Below are positions 9,912-63,996 of a stretch of DNA of 64,000 bases, piece after piece (position 1 is the first letter of the stretch; each line of letters begins with the position of its first letter). The position numbers and the translations under genes are program-made. This DNA comes from Candidatus Woesearchaeota archaeon (GTDB lineage: Archaea > Nanobdellota > Nanobdellia > Woesearchaeales > SKIA01): assembly GCA_046704725.1 (NCBI GenBank), contig JBJKRI010000003.1, positions 93,758 through 157,757 of the forward strand, written 5' to 3'. Below the pieces are notes generated by a model, which ran no database searches, was not told the origin of the DNA, and saw nothing but the letters and a program-made list of their open reading frames with translations.

Positions 9912-10120
9912 CAGCCATCTACGTAGAGATCAGGCAGTACCGTAGCGTGCTCGACAGTCAGGATACGCTCAAGAGCAAGCTCTTGGCCGCCAAGCGCGTG
10001 CTGCACGAGCTCCATGACATCCGCAACGAGGAGAACAAGGAGCTGCATCGTCTCGAGGCCCAGCTCAAGGAGATGCGCGGCCGTCTCGAGGGCGTCCGCA
10101 CGGAGTTGATGGACGAATGA
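9908..10120 (+). CDS. small coiled-coil protein
   Basis: 70 aa all-helical, ATGA overlap with upstream gene. Confidence 0.45.
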   Translation: MTAIYVEIRQYRSVLDSQDTLKSKLLAAKRVLHELHDIRNEENKELHRLEAQLKEMRGRLEGVRTELMDE

Positions 10121-10590
10121 CTGACGAACCGACCAGTTACTTCGTCGGATTGCACAAGCCGGGCAGCATGCGTAAGGACCTGCTCGAAGGAGCGAAGATC
10201 TCTGTCAACATCCTCAAATCGCAGTATCGGGTGCGCTCGTTGCGAGCGCGCAAGGTCGAGTTGCTCAGTACTCTCGCGAGCATGACGCGCGAACTATCGA
10301 CCTTGGTCGGATCCATACAGATGGACATGCCTGATCAGCAGCCTGACAAGATGCCCAAGGTTGTACGCGAATTGCAGCAACGGCGGGCCAAGGCAGCGGC
10401 GAAGGAGATGGCTGCCAAGCGGGCCGCGGCCAAGAAGGCGTCGAAGAAACCTTCGAAGAAATCCGCGAAGAAGACCCCGAAGAAGGCTGCGCCGAAGCCC
10501 ACTCCTAAACCAGCCCCTCGTCCTGTGGATGACATGGCGCATCTGGAGCAGAAGCTTGCTGACATCGAGAAGAAGCTTAATAAGCTGTGA
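10117..10590 (+). CDS. coiled-coil protein with histone-H1-like Lys/Ala/Pro-rich tail
   Basis: ATGA overlap; C-terminal AKKASKKPSKKSAKKTPKKAAPKPTPKPAP. Confidence 0.45.
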   Translation: MTDEPTSYFVGLHKPGSMRKDLLEGAKISVNILKSQYRVRSLRARKVELLSTLASMTRELSTLVGSIQMDMPDQQPDKMPKVVRELQQRRAKAAAKEMAAKRAAAKKASKKPSKKSAKKTPKKAAPKPTPKPAPRPVDDMAHLEQKLADIEKKLNKL

Positions 10591-10610
10591 GTTTTCCGTG
10601 CATTTTCCCT

Positions 10611-10713
10611 GTGGGGGTTCCCGAGTGGTCAAAGGGGCAGGACTCAAGCGTCGATTGTGACGGGGATATCCTGTAGCTGAGCGCTTTCGGGGGTTCGAAT
10701 CCCTCCCCCCACA
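10611..10713 (+). tRNA. tRNA-Leu (anticodon CAA) with 19-nt intron after position 37
   Basis: acceptor GTGGGGG/CCCCCAC, anticodon stem CAGGA/TCCTG, loop CTCAAG|intron 10649-10667|A, long variable arm, T-loop TTCGAAT, discriminator A. Confidence 0.8.
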
Positions 10714-10722
10714 TTTTTATGG
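10714..10722 (+). terminator. T-tract terminator after tRNA-Leu
   Basis: acaTTTTTAtgg immediately 3' of tRNA. Confidence 0.4.
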
Positions 10723-10724
10723 AT

Positions 10725-11765
10725 TCACGTGTTTCAGGTGTTCTCCGCCTTGAATTCGATAGATAAGTTTGCGATTTTCAGTGAAATTCTTGGATTGGTC
10801 TGATTTTCCGAATGTCGAGAATTCGTTATTCTCAGGATGCGTGCTTGAAGAATCGCATTTTTCGGATATATCTTGATTTTCGAATTATTGTGTTACAGGC
10901 TTTCAGATACGTGAATTCACTATTTCAGCCACTCAAGGGTTCTGAGCCCTTTGAGGACCTTTAAAATTATTAATTATTGCTTCTCAAAGCCTGAGGAACA
11001 TGAATTCACTCCTTTCAGCTTTCTCAATTCTGTGTGAATTCACTCATTTTTCGGACTGATCGTGCTGCTCCTCACGTGCCTGCAGCGGATCTTGCCTCTT
11101 CTGCTCGATATTCAGGTTACTGTTGGCGTTTCTGTTGTATTTTCTATATAGATATAAATATCATCTACTGAAATTGGATTCTAGAGCTACAGGCTTTGGG
11201 GGACGTGAATTGACGTGTTTACTGATTTTTTGAAATTTTCCGATTTTCTGTGATTTTCGAATTTAATTATAGCTTCTCAAAGGCTGAGGTGTACGAATTC
11301 TCGAGTTCCAATGTCTTTGAAACTGGCTGTTTTGGCTTCAGATCCCGTTCGTTTTGTGGAGTTGGATCCTTCATTTGTGCTATTTTTGGCCTCCGTCGCA
11401 CGCTCTATCTGTCGATTGTATCTTTTTTGATATTTTCTATAATGAAAATAATTGATTTTCCGCTTATTTTCGATCGATTTCTGTGTTTTTGATTCGTGCG
11501 ATATAGGCTTTGGGGGAAATGAATTCTCGAGTTTCGCTATTTTATGGTCTTAAGCTGGATATCTTGGTTTTCTGGCCACGATTCTCGCTTCCCAAAGCCC
11601 GAGGGGGATGAATTCTCGAGAATCAATGATTGAAAACTGGCTTTGTATTACCAAGTATGGAAATATCACACAAAAACCGGAAGATTTCCGGAATGCTTTA
11701 TAATAGATGGTTCCGGCGATGCTGCGATCCGACCCGAAAAATATAGAGTTAAATATTACTTAGTA
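10725..11765. repeat. AT-rich non-coding island with >=7 copies of degenerate ~25-nt motif AGGCTTTgrGGGAnnnTGAATTCnC
   Basis: ~40% GC versus ~60% flanks; no credible ORF; motif copies near 10893, 10985, 11035, 11192, 11272, 11505, 11597; also recurring gattttc and aaactggct elements. Confidence 0.6.
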
Positions 11766-11778
11766 CGACCAGATTGGT

Positions 11779-12042
11779 ATGAGAACTGTTTCTCTCAAGA
11801 TGGCGGACAGTATCCTAGATAGGATCGATGCCCACCTTGAGCGACACAACTTCACGACACGCACGGAATTCATACGGGAAGCCATCCGGGACAAGCTCCA
11901 AGAGCTCGAAAGTGATAGGTTCGAATCAGAAATCCGTAAATACTTCCGGCACCATTCTACCGAATTAGGCAAAGAAATCAACGATATCGAAAGCGACGTG
12001 TTCCGAGAGCTGGAGAACCGCTTCGGAAGACAGCGACGATAG
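11779..12042 (+). CDS. ribbon-helix-helix (CopG family) transcriptional regulator
   Basis: MADSILDRIDAHLERHNFTTRTEFIREAIRDKL RHH motif; TATA aaaatatag ~30 nt upstream. Confidence 0.65.
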   Translation: MRTVSLKMADSILDRIDAHLERHNFTTRTEFIREAIRDKLQELESDRFESEIRKYFRHHSTELGKEINDIESDVFRELENRFGRQRR

Positions 12043-43151: not shown

Positions 43152-43933
43152 ACATGGAGAAGCTCTTCGAGGACGGTAATGTGCTCGCTTTGCACATCAC
43201 GGGCGTCCTGCCCGCGTACATCAACACGCTGCGTCGTTACATGGCCAGCCGCGTGCCGACCATGGCGATCGACAGCGTGGAGTTCAAGAGCAACAACAGC
43301 ATCCTGTACGACGAGATGGTCGCGCACCGTCTCGGATTGCTCCCCCTCACCACCGACCTGGAGACCTATCGCCTTCCCAAGGAGGAATGGATCGAGCCCA
43401 CGGGCGATCCCCGCGTCGAGGTCCAGCTCTCGTTGAAGGTGCCGAAGGTCAAGTCAGAGACCGTGGTCCGCGCCAAGGATCTCTCGACCAAGGACAAGAA
43501 GATCGTGCCGGTCTACCCTGACATGCCGATCGTCAAGCTCATGGAAGGACAGGACATCGAGCTCGTCGCGACCGCTCGCCTCGGTATCGGGGAGGGGCAC
43601 GCGAAGTGGAGCCCCGGTCACGTCTGGTACCGCCATTTCCCGCATATCGCCATCAAGAAGCAGCCCAAGGACCCCAAGGCACTGGTTGAGCGCTTCCCCG
43701 GCGTGTTCGAGGTCAAGGGCGGCAAGCTCGCGCTCACCAAGGACGCCGCGTACCGGATGCCCGACATGGATATCGCCGACGACGGGATCGAGGTCTCGTT
43801 CGCCGACGACGACTACATCCTCACGGTCGAGAGTTGGGGACAGCTCACGCCCAAGGAGATAGTGAATCAAGCGTTCAGTGCGTACGACGACCAGCTCGAC
43901 GAGTTCGCCAAGCTGGTGAAGGAGATCAAATGA
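43148..43933 (+). CDS. rpoD: DNA-directed RNA polymerase subunit D (Rpo3)
   Basis: [26 protein letters not shown] dimerisation motif; ATGA overlap with S11. Confidence 0.8.
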
Positions 43934-44015
43934 GGGTGTGCCGGAGTGGTCAAACGGGCACGCTTGAGGGGCGTGTGGCTTAGTGCCTGCGAGGGTTCGA
44001 ACCCCTTCACCCTCA
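43932..44015 (+). tRNA. tRNA-Leu (anticodon GAG)
   Basis: acceptor GAGGGTG/CACCCTC, anticodon stem CACGC/GCGTG loop TTGAGGG, long variable arm, T-loop TTCGAAC, discriminator A. Confidence 0.8.
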
Positions 44016-44031
44016 GACAACGGAGACAACG

Positions 44032-50649: not shown

Positions 50650-51201
50650 ATGGCGAGAATGCCTTCACGTTCGAACGTCTGGATTATCCTCGGTGTTGTG
50701 CTCGTTGTGCTCGCTGTGGTGTTGCTGGTGAATAATCTCGAATCTTCTACCTCCAGCACGGTGACGACCAGTCCGGATGGCACGCTCGCGGGCGGACAGC
50801 AGCAGACGACCCCATCACAATCACCGTCCGCCGCGACCGGCGCGGTCACGTACCAGATTGATGCGTCCGGCGTCAGCGACCTCGCGGGCGTGCAGCTCAC
50901 GCTCACTTATGATCCTTCTGTCGTGCAGTACGTGAACGCGACCCCCGGTCCCTTCCTCGGCACGGGCAAGGATATCTTCTACCCGACATCCACTATCCAG
51001 ACCGCTCCCGGGCTCGTGCGTGACCTCGTCCTCGTGCGGCTCGCCAAGCAGGGCGTCTCCGGTGGCGGGACGGTCTTCTACGTGCATTTCAAGCGCGTGT
51101 CCACGGGCGATCCGAACATCCATATCTCGGATGCCCTGGTCGCCAACTCTCAGGCGCAGAAGCTGCCTTCCGCGGATATCCGCGGGCAGCTCGTCGGCTG
51201 A
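50650..51201 (+). CDS. secreted cohesin-like domain protein
   Basis: signal/TM anchor, Ser/Thr linker, LTLTYDPSVVQYV..FYVHFKRVSTG beta-sandwich pattern. Confidence 0.4.
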   Translation: MARMPSRSNVWIILGVVLVVLAVVLLVNNLESSTSSTVTTSPDGTLAGGQQQTTPSQSPSAATGAVTYQIDASGVSDLAGVQLTLTYDPSVVQYVNATPGPFLGTGKDIFYPTSTIQTAPGLVRDLVLVRLAKQGVSGGGTVFYVHFKRVSTGDPNIHISDALVANSQAQKLPSADIRGQLVG

Positions 51202-51994: not shown

Positions 51995-52050
51995 AATGAG
52001 CTTTGTTGTCGAACGCGATGTTTTTTAAGAGCGTTTCCTGTCCTCGCCGC

Positions 52051-55000
52051 ATGGATTTCGTCGCGATCGCCGCAAAATGGCAGGAACGCTGGGAAAAAGA
52101 CGCTATATTCGCCGCAAAAGAGGTTAAAGACGGCCTATACGTCCTGGAGATGTTCCCCTATCCCAGCGGGACCATGCACATGGGGCACGTGCGCAACTAC
52201 AGCATCGGCGACGCCCTGGCGCGCTTCCGCTGGATGCAAGGCCATAGCGTCCTGCATCCCATGGGCTTCGACAGCTTCGGCCTGCCCGCCGAGAACGCCG
52301 CCATCAAGCAGAAGGCGGACCCCCGCGCGTGGACCGAGAAGAACATCGCGCACATCACCGAGCAGTTCAAGCGCCTCGGATTGTCGTACGATTGGTCGCG
52401 CACGCTCGCGACCCACACGCCCGAGTACTATCGCTGGAACCAATGGCTCTTCCTCGCGTTCCTCGAGAGAGGCCTCGCCTACCGCAAGGAGGCTCCGGTC
52501 AATTGGTGTCCGAGCTGCCAGACCGTGCTCGCGAACGAGCAGGTCATCGACGGCAAGTGCTGGCGCTGTGGAAGCGAGGTGGAGACGCGCAATCTCAAGC
52601 AATGGTTCTTCCGCATCACGTCCTACGCCGAGGAGCTCCTCGCTGACCTCGGCACGCTCGGGGAGTGGCCCGAGCGCGTGCGCACCATGCAGCGCAATTG
52701 GATCGGCAAGTCCACCGGCGCGCGCGTGAGCTTTCCCGCCAAGGACGGCGCGGTCGAGGTGTTCACCACGCGTCCGGACACGTTGTATGGCGTGACCTAT
52801 CTTGTGCTCTCGCCCGAGCATCCGCTCGTCGCTCGCTTCACCGTCAAGCAGAAGGAGAATGAGGTGCAGGCCTACATCGCCGCCGCCAAGAAGAAGACTT
52901 CCATCGAGCGCACGGCGGAAGGAAAAGAGAAGACCGGTGTCTTCACGGGCGGCTCTGTCACGCACCCCCTCACCGGGAAGGAGATCCCTGTCTGGGTCGC
53001 TGATTACGTCCTGATGGATTACGGCACCGGAGCGGTGATGGGCGTTCCCGCGCACGACCAGCGCGACTACGACTTCGCCTCCAAGTACGGCATCCCCATC
53101 GTTCCCGTCGTGAAGCCCGAGGACGGCAAGATGCCGACGGACCGTGCCTTCGTCGCCGAGGGCACGCTCATCAACAGCGAGGATCTCGACGGCCTGTCCA
53201 CCGACAAGGCCATCGCCGCTGTCGCAAAGCGCTTGGCAAGCGACGGTCTCGGCCGGGCCGAGACCCAGTATCGCCTGCGCGACTGGCTGGTCAGCAGGCA
53301 GCGATACTGGGGAACGCCGATACCCATCGTCTACTGCGAGGAATGCGCGAAGCACGATGTCTTCATGTTCCACGGCTGGGAGGACGGCAAGGACGCCGGC
53401 TTCTTCCCTGCGATGCGCGAGCACCTCTCATCCCTCGGCCACCGGCCGCATGCGGAGAGCTTCCCGGGAACTGACGCACCTGATTTCGACGTCTGGTTCG
53501 AGAAAGCGGACGGCATGCTCGATGGGCATGATAGGCCGACCGTCATCGGGCATTCCATGGGCGGCCTGCTCTCCCTCAAGCTCGCCGAGAAGCATCCATT
53601 GCGGCGGCTCGTGCTCGTCGCTCCCGTCGGCCACCGGCCATCGGAGGCGTACTTCACGCAATACAAGGATAAGCTCTCCGAGGAGGACCTCGCTGTCTAT
53701 CGCGCCTATCAGGACCGCCCTTTGGACGTCGCTGCCATCAAGGGCAATGTGTCGGACATCACGTTCGTCTTCGGCGGCAAGGACCCTTGGATAACGACGG
53801 AGATCCGCGAGAAGTACCGTGCCGAGTTCGGCGATGTCGCGCATTTCATCGATCTGCCTTTTATGGGGCACATGTCCGAGAGCGAGGGCGTCAAGCGCGT
53901 GCCCGAGCTCGAGGCCTTGTTCGTGCAAGAGGCCGCCGCGGTCCCCGTCCCCGAGAAGGACCTGCCCATCCTGCTCCCGACGGACGTCTCGTTCTCCGGC
54001 GAGGGAAATCCCATCGCGACGAGCAAGAGCTTCGTCGAGACGACCTGCCCGAGGTGCGGCAAGCCCGCGCGACGCGAGACGGACACGATGGATACCTTCG
54101 TGGACAGCAGCTGGTACTACCTGCGCTATTGCGATCCGCACAACGGCGAGCGCATCTTCGATAATGATAAGGCGGACGCCTGGATGCCTGTCGACCAGTA
54201 CATCGGCGGCATCGAGCACGCCATCCTCCACCTGCTCTATAGCCGTTTCATCACCAAAGCGACGCGCGACATGGGACTGCATTCCGTGGACGAGCCGTTC
54301 GTGCGTCTCATGACGCAAGGCATGGTCCTCAAGGACGGCGAGAAGATGTCCAAGAGCGTCGGCAATGTCGTCGACCCCTTGCCGCTCATCGACAGGTACG
54401 GTCCGGATACCGTGCGTGCCTTCATCCTCTCTGCATCCTTGCCGGAGAAGGAGATGGAGTGGTCCGACGAGGGTGTCGCGGGTGCGCACCGCTGGCTGCG
54501 CCGCGTCGAGGCGCTCTTCGAGAAACAGCAAGAGCGTAGGGAGCGGACCAGTGCTGATGCGTACTTGCGTAGCGCGGTGCATCGCACCATCAAGGACGTG
54601 ACCGCGCAGTTCGAGGGCATGCGCTTCTCCCACGCGATCAATTCGCTCATGGAGCTCACCGGCGCCATGGCGCGCTACGCCAAGAACGGCGTCCATCCGG
54701 ACGTGTGGTCCGAGGCGACAGAGGCGCTGCTCAAGATGGTCGCTCCGATCGCGCCGCACCTGGCCGAGGAGATCTGGCACCGCAACCATGATGATTACAT
54801 CAGCCTCGCGTCATGGCCTGTCGCGGACGAGTCCGCCATCGACCGTGCGGCGGAGGCCGGAAGGGACCTTGCCGATCGCACGCGCGATGACCTGCGCGAA
54901 GTCCTCTCTATCGTCGACCTCTCGCCGAAAGAAGCGGTATTGTTCGTTCCCGCCGATTGGAAGTACGCTTTCGTCTCCGCGCTCAAGGACGCATTGGAGG

Positions 55001-55281
55001 GGTCTTCTGATGCCGGAGCGATCCTCAAGGAGCTGATGAAGACCGATCTCAAGCGCCACGGGAAGGAGATCTCTAGGCTCGTCCCGCGCTTCGTCAAGGA
55101 CCGCTCCAAGCTTCCCGCGCACCTGCTCTCTAGGGAGGAGGAGGCGGGCGCCTTGTCGGAGGCGGCTTCCGCATTGGGCACGGAGTTCGGCCTGAAAGTG
55201 ACGGTGTTGGCGGAAGAGAAGGCGAAGGACGCGAAGGCTTCGCAGGCCTTGCCTGGCAAGCCTGCCATACTTCTACGATGA
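52051..55281 (+). CDS. leuS: leucyl-tRNA synthetase (bacterial type) with inserted alpha/beta-hydrolase domain
   Basis: [41 protein letters not shown]1 editing region; ~195-aa YdeN/RBBP9-like serine hydrolase module (FMFHGW...GHSMGG...) between CEEC and CPRCG zinc-knuckle halves; TATA ttttttaaga 21 nt upstream of [10 protein letters not shown] start. Confidence 0.9.
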
Positions 55282-55928
55282 TATCCGTCCGGCCGTACAA
55301 GGATTCCGACCGTTCCGCCGTGCGACGCATCCACTTCGATACCTGGCTTGTCGGAAGGTCGTTGCGTATGGTCGGCGCGAGCCGGGAGCGCGTCGACGCG
55401 TTCATCAACCCGTACATCACGCGTTGGAAAGAGCATGCTTTTGTCGCCGTGGACGGAAAGCGTGTGGTCGGCTACGTCGTCGGAGCGTTTCCCGGGGAGG
55501 AGCAGGGCAACAACGACCATGTCAGGATCGTCTTGCGCAATGTGCTGTCCTGGCCCGTCCTCTCGAAGGGCGACAGGCGTTTCTGGGGCTGGCAGCTACG
55601 CATCATGCTGTACCTGATGACGCACCCCGGAACGGACGTCCTTGCTGTCAAACCACCGAGGGACGCCGCTCACCTGCACGTCAATCTCGCGAAGGACGCG
55701 CGCGGCAAAGGTATCGGTAAGAAACTGCTCGAGACGTTCTTTTCGCATCTGCGAAAGAACAGTATCAAGAAGGTCTTCGCACAGAGCTGGGGCACGCGCA
55801 TCAATGACACGAGTGGTTTCTGGCGCAAGATGGGCTTTCGCTTGGCAGCGCATGCGAAGACGCGCTTCTGGAAGGAGTATTTCCCCGAAGAGAGTGTTGA
55901 ACTGACGATGTGGGTGAAGAAGCCATAG
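55278..55928 (+). CDS. GNAT family N-acetyltransferase
   Basis: [14 protein letters not shown] motif A. Confidence 0.6.
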
Positions 55929-55935
55929 AGAATTT

Positions 55936-56391
55936 CTACGCGGACTTTGCACGTTGCCGGTATGCTGCTGCGGTGACCGGCTGGATATGTGCTTCTTCGA
56001 GTTGCTCGACCACCTCTGCGAGCTGGCTCTCTATCCATCGTTTCCCGCTCCCGAGCATGCCTGTCTCTGTCCCCATCAGTTCGGTCTCTGATCGATAGAC
56101 GCTCCGCGTGAATGCTCCTTCCTTGAAATGCTGCCATTTGTCTCCTCGTGGCAGTGACCCGTCGTGCACGAGTGCGATGGACACCTGCAACAGCCCGTAA
56201 CTCTTTCCTTTCGTTGTTCCGGCCGGGTTGTATGTGCGCAGATGGGCCCAGAGGACGAACGGATCCTCTCGGGCGAGCTTCGTCAATCCGCTCTTCCCCC
56301 AGCTCTGACGGCCTGACAATCCCGGAATCGGTCTGTCGGCGGATTTCACCAGATAATGATGTTGTGGTGCCACTTCGGGCGGGATGTGCAT
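55936..56391 (-). CDS. hypothetical protein
   Basis: 151-aa ORF; TATA gggaatatatacc ~25 nt upstream. Confidence 0.35.
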   Translation of the reverse strand: MHIPPEVAPQHHYLVKSADRPIPGLSGRQSWGKSGLTKLAREDPFVLWAHLRTYNPAGTTKGKSYGLLQVSIALVHDGSLPRGDKWQHFKEGAFTRSVYRSETELMGTETGMLGSGKRWIESQLAEVVEQLEEAHIQPVTAAAYRQRAKSA

Positions 56392-56429
56392 GGCGCTGTA
56401 GAGCAGAGGGGGTATATATTCCCTACGTT

Positions 56430-56710
56430 AGAGGGACGAGAATGCGTGCCCGGGGGTGGACCGCGCCGGCATGCGCAGCTGACCCTGCGGGTCCCTCCCC
56501 CACGCGACCCGCGATACAGGCGTGCGGGCGCTGAGGTCTGCTCCATTCCTGGCCTGAACCGGTTCACGCCAACGCACCTCACCGAGGACGTGGGATCGAC
56601 GGTCGCCGCAGGACTGCGCGTGACGGGTATAGCCGCCCCCCGGGCTTCGGCCCCGGATGAGGACGGTTCTCCGGTGACAGGGCACGCCCGGCGCCCCAGC
56701 CTAGCAGGGG
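56430..56710 (-). ncRNA. ffs: signal recognition particle RNA (7S/SRP RNA)
   Basis: ORF-free ~72% GC block; minus-strand TATA catttataagtg (56725-56736) ~25 nt upstream; 5' region GCCCUGUCACCGGAGAACCG matches archaeal Alu-domain CUGUAACCGGAAACC; helix-8-like CAGGCCAGGAAUGGAGCAGACC matches conserved CAGGUCCGGAAGGAAGCAGC; long 5'/3' terminal complementarity. Confidence 0.55.
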
Positions 56711-56741
56711 GAAGAACGGCCTGTCACTTATAAATGCGGCG

Positions 56742-57722
56742 CTATGGCAGCACGCCCGTCACGATCACGTTGCGCGTGTACAGGTCTCCTGTATCCCCCT
56801 GGATGACGCAGACGTTCTCTGTCGTGTTGCGGATGATGAGGTTCTGCGAGCCTGAGAGCGGTATCTGGTTGGCCTCCTCGTGCGGTGTGCCTTCCAGGTA
56901 GAGGTCTCCCGTGTCCGTGATCCACGCGGTATCGCCATTCGCGGTGTGCACGGTGAAAGCGTTGCCCGGCGCGGGTCCCGTGGCGTTGACGTGGATGTCT
57001 CCCGCGAGCAATACGCGCCCGTGCTTGTCGAAGAGCGCGACCAGTCGCCCGTTGTGGTCGGTGATATTCAGGTGTCCGGTCTGCGAGATGCAGTAGCCGA
57101 CGTGGCACATGTCTCCCGCTGCGCAGTCGCTGTCGACGTGGCAGTCGCTCGGGATGTTCACGTGCTGGTACGCGCCGGCGGTGTTGTTGATGGTCGTGTT
57201 GATGGTCCCGTTCGTGGGGGTCTGGGGCGTGTTGATGAGCTGCGGCGAGACGTAGTGGATGCTGGAGAGGGTGAAGTTGCCTCCGGTCACGCTGACCTGC
57301 AGGTAGAACGGCCCTTCCATCGTCTGGTTGCAGGTCTGGTCGCACTCCTGATCGAGGATGTGCGTGTACGTCAGGTTCGTCCCGGTGCCCAGCCGCACGA
57401 CCGTCCCGCCCTTGTTGAGCAGGAAGCTCGCGTTGCTCGGCGTCGCGGGAGCGGTGTAGCTCGCAACGTGCCACGAGCCGTTCGGCCCGACGAGCTGGAC
57501 ATTCACGCTGCCGCTTCCCGTGTAGCGTCCGTCGAGCGTGAGGCTGGTCAACTGGTTCGGCAGTGTCAACGGCACGACTCCAGAACCCGTCAGGTTGATG
57601 TTGAGGTTCTGCGTCTGCTCACCGACCGCGACCGAGAAGCCGCTGATGCCGGTGTTCGCGAACAATGCGAATGTCGCGACGATGCCGAGGAGGAATCCGG
57701 AGAGGATGAGCTTCTGGTTCAT
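56742..57722 (-). CDS. secreted Thr/Asn-rich beta-rich surface protein
   Basis: N-terminal TM/signal, many NxT/S sequons, Cys-rich segment; ATGA-coupled to upstream tail-fibre-like gene. Confidence 0.45.
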   Translation of the reverse strand: MNQKLILSGFLLGIVATFALFANTGISGFSVAVGEQTQNLNINLTGSGVVPLTLPNQLTSLTLDGRYTGSGSVNVQLVGPNGSWHVASYTAPATPSNASFLLNKGGTVVRLGTGTNLTYTHILDQECDQTCNQTMEGPFYLQVSVTGGNFTLSSIHYVSPQLINTPQTPTNGTINTTINNTAGAYQHVNIPSDCHVDSDCAAGDMCHVGYCISQTGHLNITDHNGRLVALFDKHGRVLLAGDIHVNATGPAPGNAFTVHTANGDTAWITDTGDLYLEGTPHEEANQIPLSGSQNLIIRNTTENVCVIQGDTGDLYTRNVIVTGVLP

Positions 57723-59683
57723 TGCAATGTCACCACCAGTCCTTGCGCGGAGTTCGTCACCGTGCCTCCGCTGAGCTGCACGGGCGCGTTGTAGTATTCC
57801 GGCTGGATGAGTACCTCGATGGTCGAGTCGCTCGTCGCTGGTTGCAATGCACGTCCGATCACTTCACCGCTCGCTGTCGCTTTGGCGCCCACGCCCGGCG
57901 TGGAGGAGATGCCGATGCGGTCGCCGATGCTGATGTTACCATTCACTGTGGAGACGCGCATATAAGCCTTTCCGGTCGTCGCGACCGGGTAGCCGCCGCT
58001 CTGCGCGGGTCCTGTCACGATGCCGATGATCGGGTCGTCGGTGTTGTTGGCCTTGACGACGTCGCCGGCGTTCGTGGTGTCGAGCGCGACCAGGTCGCCT
58101 CCCGAGAGCAGTTCTGTGGAGTTGTACAGGTCCGTCGCGGACGCGACGCCGATCGGCTTGCCTTTCTGGAGGCTGTCGATCTCGGCCTGCTGTTGCTGCA
58201 ATGCCTTCACGATGGTCGGCACCATCGCCGTGTAGCTCACTGCCAGGTGGCCGTCGGGGGATGTCGCGACCGCTTCTGGTATCGTCGTTTGCACGTTCTG
58301 CGCGAGGAAGCCGTGCTGCACGCCTGCCTTGGGGCGGTCCTTCCAGCTGAAGTCCACCACGTTGAGCCCCTGGATGCGGGTGAGCCCGTTGATTCCTGAG
58401 TTCTGTATGCCGGTCTTGAGGCGCTGGTCGCTTACTGTATAGAGCTGGAATGTGCCGTTGTTGGCGATGTAGCCGACCTGCGTCCCGTTCGCTGTCAGCG
58501 CGTTGAGATAGTACGTCGTTCCGCTGCCGTTGTATGCTCCTGCGCTGATCTGTATGCCGTAGCGGTTGCTGTTGTTGCCGTCGTTCTTGAAGTACGCGGC
58601 GTATCCGCTCGGCGCGTTCACGTTCACGCTGATGTTGCCGCGCGTGAACAAGGCACCGTTATGCTCGATGTAGAAGCTCGTGTCCCTGTTGCTGCTGTTG
58701 GTTCCGTTGCCGATGATGAATGCCTGGTCGCCCGCGACGTAGCTGTTCCCGGTTCCCTGCAGCGTGTTGTATCGTCCGATGACCGCCTGCGCGTAGCCCT
58801 GTGCTGTCAAGCCGAGGCCTCCTGGCACCGAGCTGTAGTATCCGCTTGCCGTGTTGGCGTTCCCGCCGAGTATCGTGCCGTAGTATCCGCTTGCCGTGTT
58901 CCCGGAACCGCCGCCGACGAAAGCGTCCTGTCCGGCGGTGTTGCCTGACCCGCCTGCGACGACTGCGTAATCATTGTTCGCCAGGTTCTGGTTCCCACCG
59001 CCGATGAACGTCTCGTAGCCGGTCGCATTGTTCTTGTTGCCTCCCGCGACGGTGCTTGTCACGCCGCTCGCGATGTTCTGGCTGCCTCCGCCGATCGATG
59101 CTCCGGCATTGCTCGCGGTGTTCTGGTATCCCCCGCTGACTGTGCTCTGCGCGGCGCTCGCGGTGTTGCGCATGCCGCCGCCCACGACGCTCTGGTTGCC
59201 GCTCGCTACTTGTGTGGCGCCGTTCCGGTCGGTCTGCAGGTCCACCGCGTTGGCTCCGCGAGCGTTGCCGCCGCTGCTGACGATGCTGCCGTTTATCGTG
59301 AGCACGCCGTTCACGAACAGTGCTGTGGTGGGGCTCGAGGTGTTGATGCCGACAAAGCTGTTCGTGTTGTCCACGAAGAACGCTCCCGCGCTCAGGTTGT
59401 TCGCGCTGCTAACGAGACTGACCAGCGCGCTCGTGTTCGTCCAGCCGCCTCCCGAGCCGCCGCCGCTCGGCCAGGTCGTCTGGCAGGACCCTGCCAGGCA
59501 GATCCGTGTGGTCGCATTGAGGGTGCCGTCGATGGTCACATTGCTCGGGAAGATGAAGTTGCCCGCGGCGAACGTCCCGCCGCCGATCTCGCTCGCGCTG
59601 TGCCCGGGGTTCGGCGTGTACGCCATGGCGAGCGGCAAGAGCAGCAATACCAGGAGGATGAGTGGTTTACGCATGCTTCTCAC
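57719..59683 (-). CDS. tail-fibre-like surface protein with internal peptidase S74 intramolecular chaperone domain
   Basis: signal peptide; GNTASG/GGNQN pentapeptide-like repeats; SDQRLKTGIQ...GLNVVDFSWKD...HGFLAQNVQTTIPEAV...YTAMVPTIVKALQQQQAEIDSLQ matches S74 (SDxRxK autocleavage and helical tail); ~145 aa extra after chaperone. Confidence 0.65.
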   Translation of the reverse strand: MRSMRKPLILLVLLLLPLAMAYTPNPGHSASEIGGGTFAAGNFIFPSNVTIDGTLNATTRICLAGSCQTTWPSGGGSGGGWTNTSALVSLVSSANNLSAGAFFVDNTNSFVGINTSSPTTALFVNGVLTINGSIVSSGGNARGANAVDLQTDRNGATQVASGNQSVVGGGMRNTASAAQSTVSGGYQNTASNAGASIGGGSQNIASGVTSTVAGGNKNNATGYETFIGGGNQNLANNDYAVVAGGSGNTAGQDAFVGGGSGNTASGYYGTILGGNANTASGYYSSVPGGLGLTAQGYAQAVIGRYNTLQGTGNSYVAGDQAFIIGNGTNSSNRDTSFYIEHNGALFTRGNISVNVNAPSGYAAYFKNDGNNSNRYGIQISAGAYNGSGTTYYLNALTANGTQVGYIANNGTFQLYTVSDQRLKTGIQNSGINGLTRIQGLNVVDFSWKDRPKAGVQHGFLAQNVQTTIPEAVATSPDGHLAVSYTAMVPTIVKALQQQQAEIDSLQKGKPIGVASATDLYNSTELLSGGDLVALDTTNAGDVVKANNTDDPIIGIVTGPAQSGGYPVATTGKAYMRVSTVNGNISIGDRIGISSTPGVGAKATASGEVIGRALQPATSDSTIEVLIQPEYYNAPVQLSGGTVTNSAQGLVVTLQ

Positions 59684-59962
59684 CTCCCTTGTCCGGCGTG
59701 ATGACGCGCAAGAAGACGTTCCCTTCGAGGTCCTCGACGAAGCGGAATTCCGTGCCGGGTTCCCATCCCTTGTCCCGCACGAGGTCTACTGGGATCGTCA
59801 GTTTGTACTGCCCATTATTCTCGACGAGCTTGACCACGGGACAGCAGTACTTAATAAATACTGCTTTTATACTTTTCTATGGATGAATAAATACTGAAAT
59901 AGTACTGGAACTGATCGTTCAATAGATTTATGTATCGTCATATCCGCTGGATGGACGGGAGG

Positions 59963-60739
59963 ATGGCACACATCGCATTTCTTGGGACGGGCGGGGACGC
60001 CTATACCGTCGCGCGGCAGGTCCGTGGCGCCGGAGGCATCATCATCGAGCTCGAAGGCCAGCAATTCCACCTCGACCCCGGCCCCGGAAGCCTTCCTATG
60101 GCAAAACAGATGGGCATCGACCTGCGCAAGAACGTCGCGTTGCTCATCACGCACGCGCACCTCAACCACGCGGGCGACGCGAACGCCGTCCTGTCCGCTA
60201 TGAGCTACGGCGGCATGGACCCGCACGGCGTGCTCATCGCGTCAGAGAGCGTCATGAGCGGCGCTCCGGGAATCTCCAAAGCGATCTCCTCGTTCCACAT
60301 GCGCTGCGCGGAACGCGCATTGTCCCTCGTGGGAGTCCCCCGGGTGGGGATCAACACAGTGAATGTCAACATCCTGCCCGCAGTGCACAACGACCCGACC
60401 GCCGTCGGCTTCCAGCTCGTCGCGGGCAAGGACCGCATCTCCTACACGGGCGACACGGGATTGACGCGCGAGGTCATCGAGGCCCATCGCGGCGCGACCG
60501 TGCTCATCGCGTGCATGCCCCTTCCCGCGGAAGAGCACTCCGCCACGCTCCTCAACGTCGAGGACGTCATCGAGCTCGCCAACGAGATCGGGCCGCGCAC
60601 GCTGATCGTCACGCACTTCGGCCACCAGCTCCTCAAACAGGACGTGCGCGCGATCGGCCGCGACATCAGCAAGCGCGTCAAGGCCCATGTCATCATGGCC
60701 GAGGACGGCCTGACGCTCGACTCCAAGACCTATCGCTGA
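59963..60739 (+). CDS. MBL-fold metallo-hydrolase
   Basis: LITHAHLNHAGD HxHxDH motif; start at MAHIAFLGTGG. Confidence 0.65.
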   Translation: MAHIAFLGTGGDAYTVARQVRGAGGIIIELEGQQFHLDPGPGSLPMAKQMGIDLRKNVALLITHAHLNHAGDANAVLSAMSYGGMDPHGVLIASESVMSGAPGISKAISSFHMRCAERALSLVGVPRVGINTVNVNILPAVHNDPTAVGFQLVAGKDRISYTGDTGLTREVIEAHRGATVLIACMPLPAEEHSATLLNVEDVIELANEIGPRTLIVTHFGHQLLKQDVRAIGRDISKRVKAHVIMAEDGLTLDSKTYR

Positions 60740-60778
60740 ATGCGAGGGAATAAATAGGGTCGTCCTCGATATACACGG

Positions 60779-61819
60779 ATGCGATTGTGGTGGCTGGCGA
60801 TCCTCGCCGTGATAGTTGTAGCCGTCGTGCTACTCGTCCGTCCCGGAACGCCGTCTTCAGCGCGGCAGAATCTCCCGGTACGCACGCCAGGAGCGCGCAC
60901 TCCGAACAATACGCTCCAGGGCAGCAGCGCTCCCACGAATCCTCCTTCACAGACGAACACGACACCGAGCGCCCCGAAGACCACCACCGCAACAACGCTT
61001 ACGGACACCATCAACGTGCACGCGATACCGTTGGGCGACGGCAAGGTCTCGAGCGCGCCCAAGCAAGGATACGTCTATTCCTGCGCCCAGACCTTCCGCA
61101 CGGGCGGCGCCCAGCACGACGGCAACTGGATACACGGCGACACGTGGGACCTCACGCAGAAGCTCTCGGTGCAGGGCGCGCTGCATTGGCCCAACGCGCA
61201 GTTCACCGTCACCACACAAGGCGACCGTCGAATCATCACGGGAAACGGATTGCCCGTGGATTCGATAACTGGCAATTTCCCCATCAGTCCCAGCGACCCG
61301 GCGTACCAGATCGACCGCAACCCGAACACCGTCACTCCCTACAATCTCTCCCTCTCGCTGCCACTGGACCCGCAAGCGGCGGCGCAGCCGTCGTGCGTCC
61401 CCATGGGCATGGTCGGCGTCTCCCTCAACGGCGTCGCGATCTTCAACGCCCTCGACGCCGCGGGACGCGACGCGGTCGCCCACGAGGTGCAGGACGCCTG
61501 TTCGGGTCATCCGCAGGAAGCGGGCATCTATCACTACCATGGTCCCAGCCCGTGCATGCCCGGCGTCAACAAGAGCCTCACGCTCGTCGGCTACGCCCTG
61601 GACGGCTACGGCATCTACAGCATGTACGACGCCAACGGCACGGAGATCACCGATTCGCAGCTGGACGCGTGCCACGGCGTGACTTCTGTCGTCCCCTGGG
61701 ACGGCAAGATGGTCAGGATGTACCACTACGTGCTCACGCGCGAATATCCCTATACGATCGGTTGCTTCCACGGGACGCCCGTGCATGTCGGGGGGCCGCA
61801 GAAGCCCCCGCGTCCCTAG
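60779..61819 (+). CDS. secreted YHYH-domain protein
   Basis: TM anchor, Thr/Pro linker, conserved GIYHYHG and VRMYHYV motifs. Confidence 0.55.
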   Translation: MRLWWLAILAVIVVAVVLLVRPGTPSSARQNLPVRTPGARTPNNTLQGSSAPTNPPSQTNTTPSAPKTTTATTLTDTINVHAIPLGDGKVSSAPKQGYVYSCAQTFRTGGAQHDGNWIHGDTWDLTQKLSVQGALHWPNAQFTVTTQGDRRIITGNGLPVDSITGNFPISPSDPAYQIDRNPNTVTPYNLSLSLPLDPQAAAQPSCVPMGMVGVSLNGVAIFNALDAAGRDAVAHEVQDACSGHPQEAGIYHYHGPSPCMPGVNKSLTLVGYALDGYGIYSMYDANGTEITDSQLDACHGVTSVVPWDGKMVRMYHYVLTREYPYTIGCFHGTPVHVGGPQKPPRP

Positions 61820-62712
61820 AGCCCGAGCGCGAGCAGGCCGAAGAGCGCCGCGTATCCAACGAAACAGCCCGCTCCCAGGAACGGCATCGCCGGGTAGAAC
61901 CGGTCCTCTTTCGCGAACACGAACAGCCCGATAAGCGACAGCGTCGCAAACACGACGATGACGCCCGACAATCCCAACGCGGCGAGCTTGGAGTAGCCGT
62001 TGCGGATGAGGTCCTGGAGCACCGCGCTCATGAATATCAGGGGAAAAGCGATGTCCCCGCCGCCGAGCACCGCTGTCCGTCCTGATTCGGACTTCCTGGG
62101 CTTGCTCGATACAGGCGGAGGCGCGCCAGTCAGGCGGACCTTCTTCTGCTTCTTGTCGTACGGCACGAGCAGGCCAGCGAAGAGCTGGCTCTGCGTCTGG
62201 AACTCTGCCATGCGCACCATATGCTTGCTGCGCCAGACCGCGTACATGTCGTAGACTGCGATAAGGACAAGGACGCCGGCCGCTATGGGCACTGTCAGCG
62301 GCAGCCCTTGGGCGATGATGACCGCGATTCCCGCATACACGAGGATCTCCGTGACATTGTGCACGATGAGGTTCGGCTTGAAGATCTTCCACGCCGTGAG
62401 CCCCAGTGATAAGATGATCGCGACAATCCACGGCATGATCACATTGAGCGAATAGGTCATGGACAGCCAGACCGCGAGGAAGAACCAGAGCTTCCACACC
62501 TTGTAGAGCCGGAACCGGATGAGCGCGAGAAGGACTATCGTCCCGATGAGCACCCCGATGACCAGCACGCTCGCTCCTTGCGCGGCTTGCCCTGTGGAAA
62601 CCGTCGGTGGACCTGCCGGAGGCGTTGCGAGCGCGATGAGGCCGAGACCCACGAGCTGCGCGACCACGAAGAACGCGACGAGCAGCATCGTGACCACGGC
62701 GGTGTGCTTCAT
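61816..62712 (-). CDS. presenilin/signal-peptide-peptidase family (A22) GxGD intramembrane aspartyl protease homolog
   Basis: polytopic; AVYDMYAVW (YD motif) and LGGGDIAFPLI (GxGD motif) in consecutive TM helices, PAMPF near C-terminus (PAL-like). Confidence 0.5.
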   Translation of the reverse strand: MKHTAVVTMLLVAFFVVAQLVGLGLIALATPPAGPPTVSTGQAAQGASVLVIGVLIGTIVLLALIRFRLYKVWKLWFFLAVWLSMTYSLNVIMPWIVAIILSLGLTAWKIFKPNLIVHNVTEILVYAGIAVIIAQGLPLTVPIAAGVLVLIAVYDMYAVWRSKHMVRMAEFQTQSQLFAGLLVPYDKKQKKVRLTGAPPPVSSKPRKSESGRTAVLGGGDIAFPLIFMSAVLQDLIRNGYSKLAALGLSGVIVVFATLSLIGLFVFAKEDRFYPAMPFLGAGCFVGYAALFGLLALGL

Positions 62713-62748
62713 GCGAAGGCTTCTCCCTAGCGGCTTAAAAGAGTATCG

Positions 62749-63996
62749 CTACCAGCCGGGATCCTGGTCCCAGGCCTTGATCTGGCCCCAATAATAGGAC
62801 ATGGCGTGGTCGGGTCCCTGGTTGAGGTTCCTTCCGAGGGCGAGGCCGATGATCTTCGTGTTCGGGCCGGTGTTGAAATTCTCGCGGTCGAAGATGAGCG
62901 TGTTGTCTATCCAGAACTTGACGACCCCTGTCCCGTTGCCGAGCTTCCAGAAGACGCGGTAGCGATGCCATTGTCCGTCGTAATACGCGTGGCTCGAGGG
63001 GGCAGGCTCCACGAGGAGTCCTGGGTCGGAGGGCTTTCCCGGACCGTTGTAGTAGAGCGCGATGCCTTCATTCTCCGGAGCGCCCACGGCGAAGTTGTCT
63101 CCGGCCTGCCCGATCTTGGCTTCGAACCTGCTGCTCACGTCCGGCGCGCCGAATAGCCACTTAAGATCCGGATTGCTCTGGCAGCCCCACGATGACGGGG
63201 CGACCGTCGTGAAGTCCGTCGGGAATCTCGCGTACCATTCCACCCAGACTTGCGTGACTGTGTGTGGGAAGACGAGGTTGTCTCCGAGCATGTAGTCCGT
63301 GCATCGACTGCTGCTGTTCGTCCTGTTCTCGAATGTGTATCGCACTGATTGTGTGAGCGTCCCGTATCCTGTCGTCTTGTCGAGATGGATATCCTGTGGG
63401 TTCCAGTATTCGCTGTTGTAGATGCCGCGCGGGTCGGACAGCAGGTCTGCGGTGCTCGTGTATTCGCTGAAATTCTCGACGAAGAATGGCTGCACGCTCG
63501 TCCCTCCACCTGTTCCTCCTCCGGAGCTTGTTGCGACGGAGAAGCTGATCGGGTAATCGGTGGTGTCGTTGTTTCCTGCTGTGTCTTGGCATTTCACGTA
63601 GTAGTTGTATGATTGTCCGTCTGAGAGCCCCGACACGGTTGTCGAGTGCATTGTTCCTCCGGTGTTCGAGAACGTGTTCGCCATATTCGCGTATGCGGTG
63701 TTGGCTGTTGTGCTGTACTTGCATGTCGCGTTCTCGTTCGTCGTTACTGACATGGTGGTGCTCGTCGTTCCCGAAGCGAGCGGGCTCGATGGCGAACTAC
63801 CGCTGATGACTGGAGGTGTGGTGTCCGGTTTGGGTATCCAGGCGGTCCAGTTATCGAAGTCAATGTTCCCGTTCTGCGCCGGTGACCCGAGCCAGCCGTT
63901 CCCGAACACGTCCCAGTGGTCTACGGGCAGGTAGAATTGCGACATGTCGGCGGGGTCGACGTGGTCCACGCTGTCTTCGAGGAGCGCTCCGTCCAC
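62749..63996 (-). CDS. secreted protein with Ser/Thr-rich linker, Ig/FN3-like and concanavalin-like C-terminal domain (N-terminus may lie beyond window)
   Basis: TPPVISGSSPSSPLASGTTSTT linker; C-terminal WHRYRVFWKLGNGTGVVKFWIDNTLIF resembles ConA-like lectin/glucanase jelly roll. Confidence 0.4.
   Translation of the reverse strand: MDGALLEDSVDHVDPADMSQFYLPVDHWDVFGNGWLGSPAQNGNIDFDNWTAWIPKPDTTPPVISGSSPSSPLASGTTSTTMSVTTNENATCKYSTTANTAYANMANTFSNTGGTMHSTTVSGLSDGQSYNYYVKCQDTAGNNDTTDYPISFSVATSSGGGTGGGTSVQPFFVENFSEYTSTADLLSDPRGIYNSEYWNPQDIHLDKTTGYGTLTQSVRYTFENRTNSSSRCTDYMLGDNLVFPHTVTQVWVEWYARFPTDFTTVAPSSWGCQSNPDLKWLFGAPDVSSRFEAKIGQAGDNFAVGAPENEGIALYYNGPGKPSDPGLLVEPAPSSHAYYDGQWHRYRVFWKLGNGTGVVKFWIDNTLIFDRENFNTGPNTKIIGLALGRNLNQGPDHAMSYYWGQIKAWDQDPGW

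Follow-up and report, generated by a model that had tools for sequence, protein, structure and literature searches.

Two textbook aids to the folding of phage fibers are Peptidase S74 domains and chaperone domains of the phi29 type. The former, exemplified by the K1F endosialidase, T5 pb1, and the GA-1 neck appendage (MEROPS S74, PF13884), open with a Ser-x4-Lys pair and close with a ~25-residue helix; they template the trimer and subsequently cleave themselves off before the Ser. The latter are typified by the phi29 gp12 autochaperone (MEROPS G2, PF11962; PDB entries 3gqh and 3suc), for which ATP dependence has been reported. Here, we analyze a 64,000-nucleotide stretch (hereafter, the window) of contig JBJKRI010000003.1 from a Candidatus Woesearchaeota archaeon (assembly GCA_046704725.1, positions 93,758 to 157,757), in which one gene on the minus strand (57719-59674, stop codon 57719-57721) fuses both kinds of chaperone in a single secreted archaeal cellular protein, referred to below as the fiber. 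The parts themselves are known; what is new is their arrangement in an archaeon, with an active S74 domain followed in tandem by a disarmed gp12-like cap. Such a tandem architecture is unsurprising in principle because domain shuffling is common among fiber proteins. With somewhat better than even confidence, we read the whole as a Sec-exported, homotrimeric surface fiber of a DPANN archaeon, whose tandem of active S74 and non-catalytic G2-like cap is released after folding.

A preliminary description of this locus had recognized the S74 domain from its motifs, and profile searches agree: PF13884 scores 49.4 bits over aa 418-472 (E=5.6e-13), where its curated cut-off is 22, and the match spans profile positions 1-57 of 58, well outside what chance would give. 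Residue numbers follow the 654-aa, GTG-start form of the fiber, whereas those given for the identical database protein P0001 follow its 651-aa, ATG-start form. The domain as a whole (58166-58432, minus strand; aa 418-506) contains the expected motifs SDQRLK (aa 418), FSWKD (aa 445), HGFLAQNVQ (aa 457), and YTAMVPTIVKALQQQQAEIDSLQ (aa 484-506), the last lying in a terminal helix at aa 484-508. The S-D-x-R-x-K start is conserved in an alignment with 20 homologs, with both Ser418 and Lys423 intact in the fiber. Six PHROG families also match the region, comprising three tail or receptor-binding families, one virion structural protein family, and two without function. In the monomer model from AlphaFold2 (AF2), the domain has predicted local distance difference test (pLDDT) scores of 70-94 and ends in a 25-residue helix at P0001 residues 481-505 (pLDDT ~90); the terminal helix of the T5 pb1 chaperone has 24 residues, and the coiled coil has been suggested as the point where folding of that chaperone begins (PMC4690869).

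The position of the domain is what departs from the canonical arrangement. PF13884 is described as lying at the C-terminal end of the precursor, but here 148 residues (aa 507-654) follow the helix, close to the ~145 first estimated. Counting from the S74 start, 20 canonical cellular homologs reach their C-terminus within 103-144 aa, versus ~240 aa in the fiber. Phage proteins give the same picture: 164 phage genome records match the S74 domain or the repeats, none of them covering more than 28% of the fiber, and the 20 listed records include 19 that cover the S74 domain, all of which stop at aa 505-510. The S74 domain is thus complete yet internal, and the fiber belongs to the S74 family by profile and catalytic pair, not by position. 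The templating and self-cleavage mechanism of the K1F, T5, and GA-1 chaperones would be expected here too. The fiber differs from these proteins in the residues after the S74 helix, its secretion signal, its archaeal chromosomal gene, and a body that is an adhesin-type beta-roll without a triple beta-helix spike or an enzyme domain.

The residues behind the S74 domain, initially left as an unexplained extension, instead contain a second and different chaperone-type module, a beta-tulip (57788-58141, minus strand; aa 515-632) whose relatives include the phi29 gp12 (Peptidase G2) autochaperone and the cement proteins of phages. Searched alone, the post-S74 region reaches the cut-off of PF09956 Phage_cement_2 (24.1 bits versus 24) and matches phrog_673 at E=1e-10. 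The AF2 model of the module has a pLDDT of 91; its beta-tulip fold and the profile match are both features of the PF09956 cement class, and this is also the fold of the released C-terminal fragment of gp12. A family hidden Markov model (HMM) built without the window protein still scores the module at 110 bits, and outside the start motif the module keeps G47, G64, G75, G80-D81, G90, K94-A95, G99, G103, and A105 (numbering of alignment A1). In a comparison of cleavage sites based on PDB chain sequences, the family profile places its DLAExY start on the first residues of 3gqh (DFAEYF), and the 3suc chain reads SDFAQYF, with Gln where 3gqh has Glu. The window copy is degenerate at this start, which reads S515-A-T-D518 (S-A-T-D-L-Y) in both MAFFT and HMM alignments, with Asp replaced by Ser and Glu by Asp. 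Since the Asp/Glu pair is absent, the fiber is not filed as a G2 peptidase. The module also differs from gp12 in following another chaperone rather than the fiber body directly, and an ATP dependence of the gp12 type is implausible for an exported protein.

The module belongs to a large family for which neither Pfam nor NCBIfam holds a dedicated model. A full HMMER scan of 1.84 billion representatives recovered 2,495 proteins at E<=1e-3 (~2,500 clusters at 50% identity), of which 196 reached E<=1e-10. Most are 1,000-4,500 aa long with two copies of the module, and the named ones come from Patescibacteria and Bacteroidota. The family start, [YF]-D-[FL]-A-E-[RM]-[YF], is near-invariant (D 94%, A 98%, E 97%), and three members (P0221, P0197, and P0230) give weak PF11962 matches of 18-22 bits, below the cut-off of 25. 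Four beta-roll relatives of the fiber that lack S74 (P0016, P0035, P0039, and P0120) terminate in the module with D-[FYM]-A-E intact. Viral relatives appear with PHROG and Pfam profiles and in an IMG/VR scan that used a six-sequence module alignment, although the module alone, run by tblastn on 50,697 phage genomes, returned nothing at E<=1e-3. On one IMG/VR viral contig (L013), a 1,233-aa protein ends in the module with the motif YDVAERY, and on another (L012), the module lies inside an 884-aa protein with GIGTTAP fiber repeats and the motif ADVAEIY; both fiber-like proteins match PHROG tail-fiber families. Because the module caps beta-roll and viral fibers, it occupies the position of a C-terminal fiber chaperone, and it carries a gp12-like cleavage motif.

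Several further features of this family were observed. In giant Patescibacteria-type proteins of 1,000-4,500 aa (among P0124-P0272), two modules lie ~260 aa apart, both with D-x-A-E intact; if each copy self-cleaves, these proteins would be multi-site self-processing surface polyproteins. A module variant without the DxAE start occurs in P0057 and on contig L015 (4339-6234, plus strand), preceded by a conserved F-T-[AG]-[SH]-H stretch (GAFTAHHE in L015, AFTGSHYG in P0057) and followed in P0057 by a coiled coil; this variant may represent another kind of cap. Behind the module, the C-terminal tail of the fiber (57722-57787, minus strand; aa 633-654) is modeled with low AF2 confidence. Its ending, ...GLVVTLQ (57722-57742, minus strand), lies 22 residues past the last strand of the module (...IEVLIQ), while P0016, P0035, P0039, and P0120 end in ...LVTLQ or ...LVSLQ exactly at that strand. 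The ...VVTLQ ending may represent either a second copy of the terminal strand or a C-terminal signal common to these proteins, as judged from the sequences.

The body of the fiber is a left-handed beta-roll (58715-59218, minus strand; aa 156-323) of about nine 14-16-aa GGxxNxAxGxxxxV units, for which AF2 predicts a regular roll of periodic short strands (pLDDT 78-97). The repeats had been called typical of phage tail fibers; their solved relatives are instead the head of the Moraxella adhesin UspA1 (3pr7, E=7.2e-15; 3ntn, E=6e-8) and an ice-binding beta-roll (3ult, E=2e-3). The fiber repeats are thus homologous to the UspA1/YadA adhesin head. This part is covered by all 119 homologs, and the full-length fiber has 4,264 scoring relatives, the best of which are 27-57% identical, mostly across the repeats only. 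Named relatives are all bacterial (Kapaibacteria, Bacteroidota, and Anaerolineae), some bearing the title "tail fiber domain-containing protein". Between the roll and the S74 domain, a pre-chaperone region (58433-58714, minus strand; aa 324-417) has low AF2 confidence; it is covered by 30-70 homologs that extend into S74, and matches to phage fibers, neck appendages, and hyaluronidases begin at about aa 330.

The N-terminus carries a Sec-type signal peptide, MRKPLILLVLLLLPLAMA (59621-59674, minus strand; aa 4-21), with predicted cleavage after A-M-A. As had been proposed, a basic n-region, a hydrophobic core, and an A-x-A site can be read by eye in MRSMRKPLILLVLLLLPLAMA, which is followed by YTP, and AF2 places a helix at P0001 residues 5-15. 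The adjoining N-terminal region (59219-59620, minus strand; aa 22-155) has no Pfam or NCBIfam match and an AF2 pLDDT below 50. Only 1-37 of the 119 homologs cover the first 120 residues, rising to ~66 near residue 130. This region is a candidate for the cell-proximal attachment part.

Comparison with other fiber and cap proteins defines the fiber further. Among its closest counterparts are the bacterial "tail fiber domain-containing proteins" (such as P0037, P0056, and P0113; Bacteroidales, Anaerolineae, and other phyla), which share body repeats at 30-57% identity, an S74 cap, and a non-viral chromosomal context. Unlike the fiber, these proteins end 103-144 aa after the S74 start and lack a beta-tulip, and none is closer to it than ~41% identity over 28% of the query. 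The trimeric autotransporter adhesins YadA and UspA1 have homologous head repeats, and by analogy with them, the fiber likely serves as an adhesive trimeric surface fiber. In contrast to these adhesins, it has no coiled-coil stalk and no C-terminal 12-stranded beta-barrel anchor (no YadA_anchor match in the Pfam scan), and its trimerization would be delegated to phage-type chaperone modules; archaea have no outer membrane. The cement and decoration beta-tulip proteins compared (PF09956; HFTV1 capsid stabilization protein 8qsy; the lambda gpD class) are trimeric, free-standing proteins of ~100-160 aa that are encoded beside capsid genes and bind capsid lattices, whereas the window module is a fused domain of a 654-aa secreted fiber with no capsid, portal, or terminase genes in the window around it. 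The fiber is therefore neither a cement protein nor a trimeric autotransporter, though it has one domain in common with each.

Among the proteins examined, only one other chain combines S74 domains with beta-tulips. This Bacteroidota protein (P0213, MEI6749474.1, "tail fiber domain-containing protein, partial") likewise has internal S74 domains, two in number (SDSRLK at 162, SDERLK at 337), and two modules (DLAE at 713 and 940), with all motifs intact. In contrast to the fiber, its S74 domains and modules lie hundreds of residues apart, without direct fusion. The P0213 chain is polyprotein-like in appearance.

Both open reading frames (ORFs) of the preliminary description were recovered as given: the fiber gene, 57719-59683 on the minus strand when read as 654 aa from GTG 59683, and the partner gene, 56742-57722 on the minus strand (326 aa). 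Their ATGA coupling also holds, CAATGAACC being a 4-nt stop/start overlap. The fiber likely starts at ATG 59674 (651 aa) rather than at the GTG; a Shine-Dalgarno sequence, GGAGGTGA, lies 5 nt before this ATG. The identical P0001 (651 aa) was found on a 195,889-bp NCBI contig and forms a singleton cluster. Two independently assembled Logan contigs (L011 and L001) match window positions 54198-63739 with zero mismatches and reproduce the junction between S74 and the tail, which excludes a chimeric-contig artifact as the origin of the fiber architecture.

A small ORF missed in the preliminary description (59667-59837, minus strand; 56 codons) may be the first gene of the unit. It is called as a gene on contig L001, has coding-like GC by codon position (0.65/0.30/0.77), and its stop overlaps the fiber ATG by 8 nt (ATGCGTAA). 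Pfam yields no match for it even at E<=10. An assignment as an AbrB/SpoVT-type regulator was withdrawn, given this empty Pfam result and a PDB search whose only matches, to lectin repeats and Mcl-1, were spurious. Upstream of the small ORF by 14-34 nt, two A/T-rich, TATA-like elements read by eye, TATAAAAG (59864-59871) and TTTATTAA (59851-59858), together constitute a candidate archaeal promoter (59851-59871, minus strand). The "surface-protein operon" proposed earlier comprises at most three genes (small ORF, fiber, and partner), and the neighboring exported proteins belong to separate units.

The product of the second gene had been described as exported, and the partner does have an N-terminal hydrophobic segment, putatively a signal peptide or signal anchor, along with a Cys-rich knot. 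It has no Pfam, NCBIfam, or PHROG family, shows only sub-threshold matches to Cys-repeats, and forms a singleton cluster. N-x-S/T sequons number 12 in the partner versus ~5 expected from composition, and 18 in the fiber versus ~11 expected. GC at third codon positions (GC3) is 0.83 in the fiber, 0.89 in the partner, and 0.83-0.87 in housekeeping genes; codon usage of both genes is host-like, without sign of recent transfer.

The surroundings are those of an archaeal chromosome. One flank of the gene holds the signal recognition particle (SRP) RNA, GNAT, and leucyl-tRNA synthetase (LeuRS) genes, and the other holds genes for metallo-beta-lactamase (MBL)-fold, YHYH, and presenilin-type signal-peptide peptidase proteins. 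In addition to these and an ABC transporter, the window encodes GyrA, ScpB, RNase J, an Rpb3-type RNA polymerase subunit, phosphoglucose isomerase, glutamate dehydrogenase, thioredoxin reductase, cytochrome b, and an Mrp/ParA-type ATPase. Every named protein among the nearest LeuRS relatives comes from Woesearchaeota, Nanoarchaeota, Nanobdellota, or Aenigmarchaeota, which makes a DPANN archaeon the most likely host. Consistent with the earlier statement that no virion genes lie nearby, capsid, portal, terminase, sheath, tube, and baseplate families are absent among the 37 largest ORFs over the 64 kb. The judgment that the locus is not a prophage also stands, as its setting is an archaeal chromosome and the window shows no provirus. 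The term "domesticated", however, implied a special event, and S74-capped beta-roll proteins are common as stand-alone bacterial chromosomal genes; three relatives that were located lie in ordinary chromosomal settings, beside type IX secretion system cargo genes, a TonB-dependent receptor gene, and the RF-1 gene. A role of the fiber in adhesion or cell-cell contact is plausible in this DPANN archaeon.

Taken together, these features suggest the following course of assembly. The precursor would be exported by Sec, and its C-terminal tandem cassette would nucleate the trimer of a YadA/UspA1-like left-handed beta-roll body followed by a short distal region. The beta-tulip, having lost its cleavage residues, would most likely serve solely to nucleate or clamp the chains around a three-fold axis, aligning the three S74 helices. 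The S74 domain would template the distal fiber, and the Ser418/Lys423 pair would then cut before Ser418 once the trimer has formed. The 237-aa cassette (aa 418-654) would thereby be released, leaving on the cell a mature fiber of ~396 aa (aa 22-417) with aa 324-417 as its distal tip. This mature fiber is probably N-glycosylated, given the enrichment in sequons, and would be held at the surface via the N-terminal region; the co-translated membrane or exported partner may anchor it or act as an accessory. Domain identities, motif states, gene coupling, cellular context, and host-like composition are observed, whereas trimerization, cleavage, release, anchoring, and the adhesive role are what we infer.

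A number of observations weigh against this reading. The homology of the module to the G2 chaperone is carried mainly by fold, motif position, and domain position: no PF11962 match appears for the module of the window protein at E-values up to 10, and the family profile A1 aligns only weakly with gp12 (3gqh, E=0.003), over its first ~57 positions. The change from Glu to Asp could retain some activity. The models are of the monomer only, with the full-length model unreliable outside the beta-roll and S74 domains. The fiber has no membrane anchor to hold it on the cell, and the partner has no homologs from which to argue. Finally, the direct fusion of S74 and module was absent elsewhere, both in an architecture census of 150 listed module representatives and 119 beta-roll matches and in scans of GTDB representatives (a distant planctomycete S74 only) and JGI metagenomes (three S74-only matches); without a second fusion, there is no comparative evidence of selection on it.

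The main rival to a released folding cassette takes the beta-tulip as a functional trimer that docks on a lattice such as the S-layer, in the way that cement proteins bind capsids, with the S74 domain as a trimerization-dependent cutter similar to that of the eukaryotic MYRF, whose S74-type domain is followed by a transmembrane segment retaining the C-terminal part; the S74 cut would then shed the beta-roll fiber from its anchor, or the reverse. We consider such a release switch unlikely. The fiber, in contrast to MYRF, has no hydrophobic segment after aa 506, and neither a membrane span nor a known anchor follows its S74 domain. No evidence of S-layer or lattice binding was found, and the closest relatives of the module cap fibers C-terminally with an intact cleavage-type motif, which points to a folding role. 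It is less probable still that the module is an evolutionary leftover, in which a module-capped fiber gained S74 or both were fused and a redundant module is now decaying without a role. The degenerate motif and the singleton architecture in all collections searched would fit such a history, and the resemblance of ...VVTLQ to the ...LVTLQ ends of module-capped beta-roll proteins suggests such an ancestry. Against decay, all invariant or near-invariant structural positions are kept, the module retains its 110-bit score and pLDDT of 91, the frame is intact, and GC3 is host-like, a pattern of purifying selection for structure.

Two further explanations draw on particles and toxins. The fiber might serve as a tail fiber for something encoded elsewhere in the genome, be it a provirus, intact or defective, a tailocin, or an extracellular contractile injection system (eCIS), as S74 is typical of phage fibers, neck appendages, and depolymerases (the 164 phage records and the PHROG families above) and the module occurs in IMG/VR fiber proteins. 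S74 is also found in eCIS fibers, and eCIS are known from archaea as well (PMC12923769); moreover, the inspected sequence to the right of the gene amounts to 4.3 kb of a 196-kb contig. However, the Sec signal is hard to reconcile with a fiber built on virions in the cytoplasm, and unlike prophage, tailocin, or eCIS fibers, the fiber adjoins no particle structural genes. Its neighbors are the SRP RNA, LeuRS, MBL-fold enzyme, and signal-peptide peptidase genes; the phage records cover at most 28% of the protein, and the closest relatives are stand-alone bacterial chromosomal genes. No PHROG or Pfam match falls within the N-terminal 155 aa, where an eCIS fiber would be expected to carry a baseplate-attachment domain, although the eBAP domains of PMC12923769 were not searched directly. 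We regard a particle origin as very improbable, and a prophage in particular was rejected in view of the 37 ORFs free of virion genes, the Sec signal, and the host-like codon usage. Polymorphic toxin loci can use tail-fiber repeats (PMC3482391), and the layout here is superficially alike, with a repeat fiber, a self-cleaving domain, a C-terminal domain, and a coupled downstream gene; S74 would release a 148-residue effector, and the partner would be its immunity protein. This explanation was rejected as having scarcely any probability, because the C-terminal domain is the structural beta-tulip of cement proteins and fiber caps, found as tandem internal pairs in ~2,500 proteins, and the partner is exported and glycosylation-rich, unlike cytoplasmic immunity proteins.

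The locus also bears on DPANN biology, to which it contributes a testable surface or attachment fiber candidate with a precise predicted cleavage site, the link to attachment being hypothetical; for protein engineering, a self-removing nucleation cassette for beta-roll trimers could be useful. A by-product of the analysis is perhaps more general, namely a large family of gp12-like beta-tulip caps that lacks a curated model and extends over viral fibers, bacterial beta-rolls, and giant Patescibacteria proteins; MoeA is the sole non-viral beta-tulip listed in a 2020 review of decoration proteins (PMC7602432). More speculatively, and as a proposition that we hold doubtful, the beta-tulip could constitute a second, uncurated class of self-processing cap as widespread as S74, spanning viral tail fibers, FCB-group beta-roll proteins, and the tandem pairs of giant Patescibacteria surface proteins. 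The DPANN fiber would then be the first series of two different intramolecular chaperones, in which the downstream one has changed from a protease-chaperone into a pure trimer nucleator. On that reading, candidate phyla radiation (CPR) bacteria and DPANN archaea, the two great lineages of tiny episymbionts, would share phage-derived assembly modules for their surface fibers, and the fiber would become a concrete candidate for attaching the cell to a host.

Downstream of the fiber unit, an archaeal SRP RNA (Rfam RF01857, 98.5 bits) begins 36 nt beyond the partner gene. Within 56443-56744 (minus strand), no terminator-like element was found between the partner stop and the SRP RNA, although the scan models bacterial intrinsic terminators and is uninformative for an archaeon. 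A TTTATAAG box (56727-56734), separate to the SRP RNA gene, lies between the two, 8 nt after the partner stop, and transcriptional read-through from the fiber unit into the SRP RNA gene is possible.

Other features of the window were also recorded. The LeuRS gene (52003-55281, plus strand; 1,092 aa as a TTG-start ORF, 1,076 aa in the source's own call) contains an insertion C-terminal of the editing domain, an alpha/beta serine-hydrolase domain (PF06821, aa 455-640) with a GHSMGG nucleophile elbow. The insertion is common to a 52% identical protein on a Logan contig (P0288) and to a Woesearchaeota protein (P0342), and ~115 other close relatives lack it. Two further encoded proteins look exported: a 183-aa cohesin-domain protein (50650-51201, plus strand; PF00963, E=5e-9) and the product of an ORF (62749-63996, minus strand; at least 415 aa) that has weak Ig-like or fibronectin-type matches and runs to the window end. 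A tRNA-Leu at 43931-44016 (plus strand) is predicted by ARAGORN and unlisted by Rfam at its gathering threshold. Conversely, a 103-nt tRNA at 10611-10713 (plus strand), detected by Rfam and uncalled by ARAGORN, probably contains an intron; the GC content of positions 10001-12000 is 0.47, compared with ~0.60 elsewhere.

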